Of a stretch of DNA of 64,000 nucleotides, positions 61,431 to 62,429 are shown in pieces. Source of the stretch: a virus. Both the position numbers and the translations under genes were made by a program. The notes beneath the pieces were generated by a model. The model was not told the origin of the DNA and made no database searches. It saw only the letters and a program-made list of their open reading frames with translations. The stretch spans positions 14,491 through 78,490 of IMG/VR virus record IMGVR_UViG_3300050120_000255, one strand, 5' to 3'. Each line of letters begins with the position of its first letter. Position 1 is the stretch's first letter.

Positions 61431-61438
61431 TCAGAGCA

Positions 61439-61514
61439 TGGGAGGCCGGTGGTTCAAATCCACCCCGCGGCGGCAGGCATGTCGTCGCGGTAGCGCAGTC
61501 TGGTAGCGCGCCCA
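61439..61514 (+). ncRNA. circularly permuted tRNA-like element 1 (T arm, closed acceptor-like stem, D arm)
   Basis: TGGG/CCCA closing stem; GGTGG-TTCAAAT-CCACC; 11-bp hairpin with GGCA loop; TA; GCGC-AGTCTGGTA-GCGC. Confidence 0.7.
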
Positions 61515-61518
61515 GCTA

Positions 61519-61591
61519 GGGGAGATATCGGTTCGATTCCGGCCCGCGACGGTCTAACCGCCGAAGCGGTAGCATTGAGGTAATGCGCCCC
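61519..61591 (+). ncRNA. circularly permuted tRNA-like element 2
   Basis: GGGG/CCCC closing stem; ATCGG-TTCGATT-CCGGC; CCGC/GCGG capped by a hairpin; TA; GCAT-TGAGGTA-ATGC. Confidence 0.6.
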
Positions 61592-62005
61592 GACATTCGC
61601 CCGAATGGGCAACGAGATGCCAGTGGACGGCATCCCTCGAACCGCACGAGATGGGTCCATGCGCGGTGACCGGCCGGAGAGACGGTCAAGGGACGATCCC
61701 ACGGTGTCAGCTTATTAGGGCGGACGGGGTCGTCCCCTACCACAAGCACACGGCCACTTGGCAAGCGTGTTCTGGCGTCTCGTTCGCGAGCGTTGGTTAG
61801 CCACGCGCCCTATAACCCGACAAAGACGGGTAGGGCCAGAGAGCCGATAGTCAGGGTGTTCCGGTTCGATCCCGCGACGCGCCGTGTGCTTTTGGTAGGG
61901 GAGCAACCCCTGCAAGTTTCGATCGGTAAGAGGCCCGCGCCGTCAACGCTCGCGGCGGGCAATTTCACCTGGTCTTTTGGGAACGCTCCGTTGGGCGCCG
62001 ATCGA
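61592..62005 (+). ncRNA. further structured non-coding domains
   Basis: Closing stems at 61592/61708, 61733-61754/61881-61902 and 61919-61927/61997-62005; no credible CDS. Confidence 0.55.
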
Positions 62006-62032
62006 TTTTCAACAACAATGAAAGGACATCAA

Positions 62033-62161
62033 ATGGGAACGGACTTCGCAAGTGAACTGGAAGACCTGATCCTCAAATACAAAAATGAGGGAACCTCGGT
62101 CGACGATATTATCGCCGATATCAAGGGGGCGATTGAAGACCTCGAAGCGGAGATTGGATGA
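62033..62161 (+). CDS. 42-aa acidic protein
   Basis: AAGGA RBS before ATG 62033. Confidence 0.55.
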
Positions 62162-62162
62162 C

Positions 62163-62429
62163 ATGTCGACTTCTGACCCGCAAGACATCGCCGAGACCGG
62201 CGTCGGCGCCGCCGAGCTGACCCAATTCGTCGAACGAATTGAGCGGCTCGAAGAGGAGAAAGCGGCCATCGCTGACGACCTCAAGGAAGTCTACGCCGAG
62301 GCCAAAGGACGAGGCTTCGACGTCAAGGTCATCCGCGAAATCATTAAGATCCGCAAGCAGGACCACTCGGAGCGGATGGAGATGGAGGCGATCCTCGAAC
62401 TCTATTTGGCCGCCCTGAACATGAAATGA
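62163..62429 (+). CDS. gapR: GapR / DUF2312 nucleoid-associated protein
   Basis: [30 protein letters not shown]...IIK.RK.D...EAILELY..AL. Confidence 0.9.

Follow-up and report, generated by a model that had tools for sequence, protein, structure and literature searches.

We ask what kind of RNA is encoded in the spacer that follows a single-stranded DNA-binding protein (SSB) gene of the virus record IMGVR_UViG_3300050120_000255, where T and D arms of the tRNA type occur in a permuted order. Our window is the last 64 kb of this 78.5-kb IMG/VR contig, whose completeness is ~81% according to CheckV, and positions are those of the window unless contig coordinates are named. The overall best explanation, to which we assign a probability of about 0.6, is that the spacer encodes a tandem permuted tRNA-mimic RNA of ~160 nt (61435-61595, plus strand), here called the doublet, which would act through a factor that reads tRNA shape. 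With regard to its structure, the doublet very probably consists of two tandem permuted tRNA-like domains, which reproduce the upper body of a tRNA (the elbow, the acceptor-T helix and the variable loop) and have sealed acceptor ends.

Both units follow one module order. A basal stem of 4 bp opens into the variable loop and the T arm; next come the acceptor helix, capped by a loop, then UA and the D arm, and a single base precedes the closing of the stem. The basal stem of unit 1 pairs TGGG (61439-61442) with CCCA (61511-61514) and extends to AGC-A-TGGG / CCCAGCT. It is followed by the variable loop AGGCC and a T arm at 61448-61464 (GGTGG TTCAAAT CCACC). The acceptor strands CCGCGGC (61465-61471) and GTCGCGG (61484-61490) form seven pairs, including one G-U, and the capped helix (61465-61490) extends to 11 pairs closed by a GGCA loop. 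The 3′ part contains TA, a D arm at 61493-61509 (GCGC AGTCTGGTA GCGC) and a G (G26). The basal stem of unit 2 pairs GGGG (61519-61522) with CCCC (61588-61591), with AGAU as its variable loop, and the T arm at 61527-61543 has the loop TTCGATT and an A-C mismatch as its first stem pair. The acceptor (61544-61569) has four pairs (CCGC..GCGG), a 2x2 internal loop and four further pairs (CGGT/GCCG), before TA, a D arm at 61572-61586 (GCAT TGAGGTA ATGC) and, again, the G at position 26. Read from the sequence, neither unit has an anticodon loop or a CCA, and ARAGORN calls no tRNA or tmRNA (transfer-messenger RNA) in the window; the first-pass annotation of this DNA had expected pseudo hits only. The unconstrained minimum free energy fold of 61431-61600 is exactly the two-unit permuted fold, with an energy of -69.6 kcal/mol; the capped acceptors have pair probabilities of 0.98 and 0.78, compared with 0.005 for the acceptor of an alternative cloverleaf at the junction of the units. 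The first-pass annotation, made from the letters of the DNA, had described two tandem circularly permuted, anticodon-less tRNA mimics after the SSB gene; every element that it listed is in place, and the computed fold agrees with it.

The known RNA that most resembles a unit is YrlA (RF02553), an RNA that mimics tRNA and partners the Ro60/Rsr proteins of bacteria and phages (Chen et al. 2014, PMC4201824). At permissive thresholds, unit 1 matches the Rfam YrlA model at 61440-61514 with 29.4 bits (model positions 23-86; E = 3.6e-4 in an 801-nt search and 8.3e-6 over the whole contig), and unit 2 matches it at 61516-61595 with 15.1 bits (model positions 20-89). The doublet shares with YrlA the permuted order, variable loop, T arm, capped acceptor-like stem, UA, D arm and closing stem, and the acceptor helix of Mycobacterium smegmatis YrlA has 7 bp, as in unit 1. 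The tRNA-like domains of YrlA carry tRNA modifications and serve as substrates of tRNA enzymes; those with a 7-bp acceptor are in addition cleaved by RNase P and receive a CCA from the CCA-adding enzyme (PMC4201824). However, both units align only to the tRNA-like core of the model, and their scores are below its gathering threshold of 69 bits. YrlA has a long 5′/3′ stem with the Ro60 site (the handle), whereas the basal stem of the doublet begins no more than 4-8 nt after the SSB stop codon, and an inverted-repeat scan found no stem enclosing the doublet. The YrlA motif GNCGAAN0-1G near the 5′ end (PMC4201824) is not matched by the nearest string in the window, GACGCAUAA. Chen et al. 2014 also took as a criterion a Ro60/Rsr gene within ~4 kb on the same strand; neither TROVE nor vWA was found in the contig, which is ~81% complete and shows only 2.4 kb downstream. 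Finally, the doublet fuses two modules head to tail through a 4-nt linker, each on a 4-bp basal stem. By these sequence features, the doublet would fall outside YrlA because it has no handle, no motif, a sub-threshold score and no Ro60 nearby, even though its module equals YrlA's tRNA-like domain. The first-pass annotation's word 'undescribed' consequently fits in part: nothing in Rfam 15 or in the literature searched matches the doublet, but the module is the known tRNA-like domain of YrlA.

We now consider the relatives of the doublet. We scanned viral contigs for a D arm followed by a T arm after 15-21 nt, a distance that is ~26 nt in a normal tRNA, and found at least 117 contigs of two kinds. 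Most carry stand-alone tRNA-like genes. A minority resembles the window in having one more T arm on the upstream side and one more D arm on the downstream side; in these the closed pairings are good, whereas the cloverleaf acceptor is often poor. The closest relative of the doublet (L110/L176) is located in a complete 164-kb phage, G006, and has the same unit order and a 4-nt linker, with YrlA scores of 38.1 and 23.4 bits. The stump region between its central D and T arms is near-identical to that of the window (GCCAGCGTAGGGGAGACACCGG versus GCCCAGCTAGGGGAGATATCGG). Although the acceptors of this relative, CATCCC/GGGATG and CGGCTG/CAGCCG, do not resemble those of the window in sequence, they pair within each unit. 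Compensatory changes distinguish the two phages in the basal stem (CUGG/CCAG in G006, UGGG/CCCA in the window), the T stem (GCCGG/CCGGU versus GGUGG/CCACC) and the D stem (GCUU/AAGC versus GCAU/AUGC). Further compact doublets occur in L059, L159, L089, L091, L140, L082 and L065, and the design is found again among unrelated phages. Counting the window and G006, seven of nine doublets have a 4-nt linker (GGCG, CACA, CGCG, CGTA, CAAA, GCTA), several have 3-7-bp acceptors capped directly by tetraloops (for example CCT-TTCG-AGG), and an anticodon loop is found in no unit of any doublet contig.

To quantify this conservation, we aligned the nine doublets with MAFFT by sequence only (alignment A4) and measured how far each fold's own helices are paired. 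The helices specific to the permuted fold are 86.9% paired, compared with 59.3 ± 2.9% in shuffled alignments and 42-52% in slid controls; both partners differ in 16 of their 22 pairs, and none of 500 shuffles attains the paired percentage that was observed. Covariation of the closed acceptor stems, which the first-pass annotation had proposed as a discriminating test, thus favors the permuted fold both between the window and G006 and across the nine-doublet alignment. Because compensatory changes preserve the permuted pairings across nine contigs, the sequence comparison identifies the doublets as a real, recurrent and mostly phage-borne RNA family, and not as a decayed tRNA array. A covariance model of the family (R1) scores its training doublets at 115-130 bits and doublets outside the training set (L121, L124, L158, L132) at 62-82 bits; ordinary tandem tRNAs reach up to ~57 bits. 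The features that define the compact-doublet family, namely basal stems of 4-5 bp, a linker of ~4 nt, capped acceptors and covariation, are all found in the window.

Several candidate relatives were rejected. The specific doublet pattern matched only G006 and L177, and L177 was judged non-homologous; the R1 matches next to the G014 TROVE gene proved to be ordinary genes for tRNA-Arg and tRNA-His. Over 151 Hyphomicrobiales genomes, with the best 20 candidates per genome scored, R1 found no compact doublet, and the one match scoring 65 bits or more is a YrlA pair of the ordinary, handle-bearing type. One Hyphomicrobiales genome carries two tandem handle-bearing YrlA-type RNAs on its minus strand (L184:1440-1780), each starting with GGUGAAGAUG, and the second closely resembles a copy in the phage G001. 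The 156-kb viral contig of L121 (L121:3974-4128, minus strand) has a 13-gene tRNA array, in which ARAGORN calls a tRNA with a four-base anticodon (ttaa) and a 'tRNA-Pyl' with a CUA anticodon, which may point to suppression or recoding in this phage.

Table 1. Features in and around the spacer downstream of the SSB gene, in window coordinates.
Feature	Coordinates	Strand	Basis or remark
ssDNA-binding protein, Gp2.5/Enc34-like, 259 aa	60651..61430	+	weak matches, acidic C-terminal tail
Unit 1 of doublet	61435..61517	+	sequence, Rfam YrlA match, minimum free energy fold, covariation (alignment A4)
Alternative cloverleaf, exclusive of permuted fold	61484..61551	+	Rfam tRNA 41.7 bits
Linker GCUA (GCTA in DNA), 4 nt	61515..61518	+	between units 1 and 2
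Unit 2 of doublet	61519..61591	+	sequence, Rfam YrlA match, minimum free energy fold, covariation
Structured non-coding stretch	61592..61725	+	between doublet and domain 3; no relative found
Domain 3, separate conserved RNA domain	61726..61909	+	inverted repeat I1; covarying closing stem P1
GapR-like protein gene	62085-62429		3′ of spacer

The doublet is one part of a larger structured region (Table 1). The whole 603-nt spacer is strongly structured (fold z = -3.67) and may be one large multi-domain RNA or several small RNAs. The stretches 61592-61725 and 61910-62020 are structured and have no relatives that we found, and the similarity between 61592-62033 and the stretch after the G006 doublet is not significant (score 46, compared with 39 +/- 7 for shuffles). 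A BLAST search of GenBank phages with a 660-nt spacer sequence gave nothing beyond a T-arm match of 41 nt, through which domain 3 was recognized. This domain has a closing stem of 25-29 bp, a conserved CCACUNGG, two hairpins (the first variable, the second NCCG-ACAAGGN-CGGN) and an extended T arm, and has no match in Rfam. As judged from its sequence, domain 3 has a Y-RNA-like shape in the normal tRNA order. Its family comprises 18 sequences with a strongly covarying closing stem, from viral contigs and three bacterial genomes. Domain 3 was noted in the window, L001:2907-3066, L003-L020, L041, L049 and L050; a scan of genome contigs gave mostly coding false positives, and only L041, L049 and L050 are genuine. 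In N4-like roseophages, including Sulfitobacter phage vB_SupP_AX, domain 3 lies between the gp43 and gp44 homologues. It is located near a Ro60 gene in one phage (G001) and near a Ro60-like gene in another (G004), and TROVE was not found in most of the phages that carry it.

This proximity leads to the alternative that survives best, though we consider it unlikely: the doublet and domain 3 would derive from one precursor within a Ro60-dependent Y RNA locus and would work, as YrlA and YrlB do, with a Ro60 (Rsr) protein of the host or of the phage region that the contig lacks. In G001, a handle-bearing YrlA-like RNA (34.8 bits, full-length) and domain 3 lie ~1 kb upstream of a Ro60 gene with TROVE and vWA domains, on the same strand; in the window, domain 3 begins 130 nt 3′ of the doublet. 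The M. smegmatis YrlA and YrlB are made from one precursor (PMC4201824), and the contig is ~81% complete and ends only 2.4 kb downstream. A comparable arrangement is found in G004: tRNAs are interspersed with two permuted units, the gene of a 482-aa vWA protein lies just downstream of these, and domain 3 comes after it. The G004 protein, with weak vWA matches and no TROVE match, is only a candidate Ro60. Against a Ro60-dependent locus, the doublet lacks a handle (it does not align to positions 1-22 and 87-114 of the YrlA model), the GNCGAAN0-1G motif is absent, and neither TROVE nor vWA domains were found in the 78.5-kb contig. TROVE is likewise absent from three complete doublet phages (G006, G009, G012) and from three complete domain-3 phages, although one of the latter is G004, with its divergent Ro60-like vWA protein. 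The first-pass annotation's statement that the permuted domain of YrlA-type Y RNAs is present here without the Ro60-binding stem or a Ro gene thus agrees with both the unmatched handle and the domain searches. On present evidence, compact doublets are not tied to Ro60. In Pfam scans, DUF7873 was likewise absent from the upstream gene (E up to 1), from 48 contig ORFs of 170-420 aa and from the neighbors of other doublets, the presence of this family in the library being unconfirmed.

The G004 locus merits a separate description. In this complete 57-kb phage (L023:1230-1716 and L013:2716-4790), a tRNA(CAU) is followed by two handle-bearing permuted tRNA-like RNAs with a tRNA between them, then by the 482-aa protein and by domain 3. 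The handle-bearing RNAs have an anticodon-like 7-nt loop. The protein has a C-terminal vWA domain and no detectable TROVE, and its sequence makes a divergent Ro60 possible.

Next, we weigh the cloverleaf that the central strands of the doublet could form in place of the permuted fold. As the first-pass annotation had pointed out, the junction also folds as a cloverleaf with a perfect 7-bp GTCGCGG/CCGCGAC acceptor and a stunted anticodon arm, and the Rfam tRNA model (RF00005) recognizes it above its gathering score of 29 (Table 1). A 12-nt stump (CCCAGCTAGGGG) replaces the anticodon arm, which is 17 nt in a normal tRNA. Forcing the cloverleaf acceptor to form yields -66.2 kcal/mol instead of -69.6 kcal/mol, a cost of 3.4 kcal/mol. 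The functional gene could be a central tRNA-like RNA at 61484-61551, released by RNase P and RNase Z and CCA-tailed, with the flanking arms as remnants, or the RNA could switch between two folds. The score above gathering, the perfect acceptor and the small energy gap agree with such a gene, as does the abundance of stand-alone tRNA-like genes with a short D-to-T distance in viral contigs: among 46 distinct genes of this kind that lack flanking arms, 37 pair at 6-7 of the 7 acceptor positions.

The comparison among doublets makes a functional central tRNA-like RNA quite improbable. The G006 homologue retains the flanking arms, and only 4 of 7 positions of its central cloverleaf acceptor are paired. 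Across alignment A4, the helices specific to the cloverleaf are 59.4% paired, barely above slid controls (41-48%), with a shuffled expectation of 51.7%, in contrast to the 86.9% of the permuted fold; 8 of their 11 pairs have changed on both sides, and 9 of 500 shuffles reach the observed paired percentage. Moreover, the flanking arms pair with the central strands and their T and D arms are intact, which decay would not preserve, and the T stem of the central element contains the A-C mismatch. The cloverleaf acceptor has only 2-5 of 7 pairs in five of the other eight doublets, and high cloverleaf scores occur only where the acceptors of both units are near-identical (the window and L091), which is the pattern that tandem duplication would produce. 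The cloverleaf is probably a by-product of paralogous acceptor strands in the two units. As judged from these sequences, it is not the conserved fold of the doublet family, though it could still form in the phage of the window, and the structural switch suggested by the first-pass annotation is not a family feature.

The same evidence separates the doublet from tRNAs in general. Its T arm, its D arm with GG, its U8-A9 and its variable loop of 5 nt are canonical, but it lacks an anticodon loop, a CCA and a free 3′ end; it falls outside the tRNAs because it has no anticodon arm and its relatives do not keep the cloverleaf acceptor. Canonical T and D arms are likewise present in the stand-alone tRNA-like genes of phages whose anticodon arm is truncated, and these genes differ from the doublet in that the doublet's cloverleaf acceptor is unconserved. 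In these genes (L052-L167, for example L086:5198-5238, L077, L066 and L080), the 7-bp acceptor, D arm and T arm are intact, and a mini-hairpin or nothing (15-21 nt) stands in place of the anticodon arm.

The genomic setting bears on a further alternative. The RNA locus is part of a replication and recombination module with an SNF2-type helicase, a HIRAN protein, a DUF2800 exonuclease and the SSB gene. Downstream of the SSB gene are ~600 nt without a credible gene, followed by a 42-aa open reading frame (ORF), the GapR-like gene and a DNA methyltransferase; the contig ends 2.4 kb downstream of the RNA. The stop codon of the SSB gene lies 4 nt 5′ of unit 1. Because no promoter or terminator match was found between the SSB stop codon and the RNA, the doublet RNA is probably co-transcribed with the SSB gene. 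The GapR gene points to a likely alphaproteobacterial host. Two tyrosine-integrase genes lie outside the window, far from the tRNA-like region, at contig positions 2738-3310 (+) and 9384-9821 (-); both fall within the first 10 kb of the contig, and on account of these genes we judge the phage probably temperate. Single-stranded DNA-binding genes of two unrelated kinds, the Gp2.5/Enc34-like gene of the window and a classical PF00436 SSB (L065:4535-5116), each have a doublet 4-15 nt 3′ of them, an adjacency that may be coincidence.

In this setting, the doublet could be a processing or stability element of a 3′ untranslated region, whose folds block 3′-to-5′ exonucleases or mark endonuclease sites between an upstream message, tRNA or tmRNA and the RNAs downstream. 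The doublet indeed starts 4 nt past the SSB stop with no terminator before it, and other doublets begin 4-31 nt after a same-strand ORF, tRNA or tmRNA (L065 after the classical SSB gene, L082 after tRNA-Ala, G006 after the coding piece of a tmRNA). RNase P also cuts the M. smegmatis YrlA, which has a 7-bp acceptor (PMC4201824). We nevertheless regard this as very improbable, since adjacency is expected in dense phage genomes, the acceptors of 3-7 bp that several doublets seal directly by tetraloops leave no RNase P or RNase Z site, and a simple hairpin suffices against exonucleases, which leaves the two full elbows and the fixed linker unexplained.

A decayed tRNA array or attP-type tRNA fragment without RNA function is extremely improbable: the left part of the locus does resemble a tRNA 3′ half and the right part a 5′ half, and the contig has two integrases, but compensatory changes keep the pairings across nine contigs, unit order and linker length recur, no unit of any contig has an anticodon loop, the integrases lie at 2.7 and 9.4 kb of the contig with the RNA at ~75.9 kb, and a relative with the same flanking genes has no tRNA genes or fragments there. 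That relative comes from the SSB gene, which has a single relative with 44% identity; in a metagenome copy of it (L002, with 400 nt visible downstream), a GapR-like gene follows ~125 nt after the SSB gene, and neither Rfam nor ARAGORN detects a tRNA-like sequence between the two. A search of viral contigs with the window SSB or its relative found no related loci. The first-pass annotation had named ordinary tRNA genes at this place in relatives as the mark of a decayed array, and the sole relative of the locus has none. Because its locus is without the RNA block, this sequence comparison suggests that the block is an accessory insertion at the SSB-GapR locus.

Two further systems share the gene order of the doublet. 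Two-piece alphaproteobacterial tmRNA (RF01849 / RF04321) has the same order of T arm with 3′ acceptor strand, linker and 5′ acceptor strand, but the doublet lacks a tag reading frame, G3-U70, a CCA and an anticodon, and neither ARAGORN nor Rfam finds a tmRNA in the window. The permuted tRNA genes of the red alga Cyanidioschyzon also have this gene order; nothing suggests that the pieces of the doublet are rejoined into a decoding tRNA. The phage G006 itself carries a circularly permuted tmRNA gene of the alphaproteobacterial type (L176:1337-1762; tag ANDNTPVVVARDEVRLAA), and its doublet directly abuts the tmRNA 3′ end and is followed by ~290 nt of structured RNA and a terminator.

How, then, might a tandem permuted tRNA mimic act? 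The 5′ and 3′ ends are placed where the anticodon stem would continue, and the acceptor end is sealed by a loop; consequently, there is nothing to decode or to aminoacylate. The RNA may accumulate as a stable tRNA-shaped species and occupy or recruit a factor that senses tRNA shape and not the anticodon or the CCA end. Candidate factors would be tRNA processing or modifying enzymes, a tRNA-directed host nuclease, a host-supplied Ro60-type particle or the ribosome, on which the doublet could act as a non-substrate decoy or as a two-site scaffold. We put forward this decoy or scaffold mechanism tentatively, as less than an even bet. A more speculative form, which we think rather unlikely, is that the doublets are a Ro60-independent class of phage non-coding RNA in which the 4-nt joint spaces two elbows for a two-site or dimeric tRNA-reading machine, thereby taking over or shielding translation. 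Such a machine might be two neighboring ribosomal tRNA sites, a dimeric tRNA enzyme or a tRNA-directed defence nuclease.

A number of observations weigh against a tRNA-mimic RNA that acts in this way. The nine doublets were gathered by the short D-to-T pattern, and some were picked by eye after their flanking arms had been seen, so the sample is not an unbiased one; the unit finder applied pairing thresholds, which makes a permutation test on the units circular, and we do not use it as evidence. The cloverleaf acceptor is paired at 7 of 7 positions in the window and lies only ~3.4 kcal/mol above the permuted fold, so it is able to form. The sequence is present in only two sequencing runs, both peat-metagenome DNA and possibly its source, and no RNA sequencing run containing it is listed. 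The sole relative of the SSB locus is without the RNA block, which makes the RNA dispensable in that phage lineage. The neighbors of the doublets include a classical SSB (L065), GroEL, terminase, FAD-oxidoreductase-like proteins, a 22-gene tRNA array (L082) and the permuted tmRNA gene (G006), with no recurrent protein family among them, and hence no partner is indicated. Finally, most known tRNA-directed defence nucleases read the anticodon loop, and a decoy against such nucleases, one of the roles suggested by the first-pass annotation, is a weak proposal because this usual target is missing from the doublet.

These loci are easily mis-annotated, because the junction scores above threshold with the Rfam tRNA model and ordinary tandem tRNAs are also hit by covariance models built from the doublet. 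To our knowledge, what tRNA mimicry does for bacterial Y RNAs has yet to be settled, and Ro60 is the only established partner. Doublets in complete phages without Ro60 separate the tRNA mimicry from the Ro60 handle, and which factor reads the tRNA shape becomes a directly testable question.

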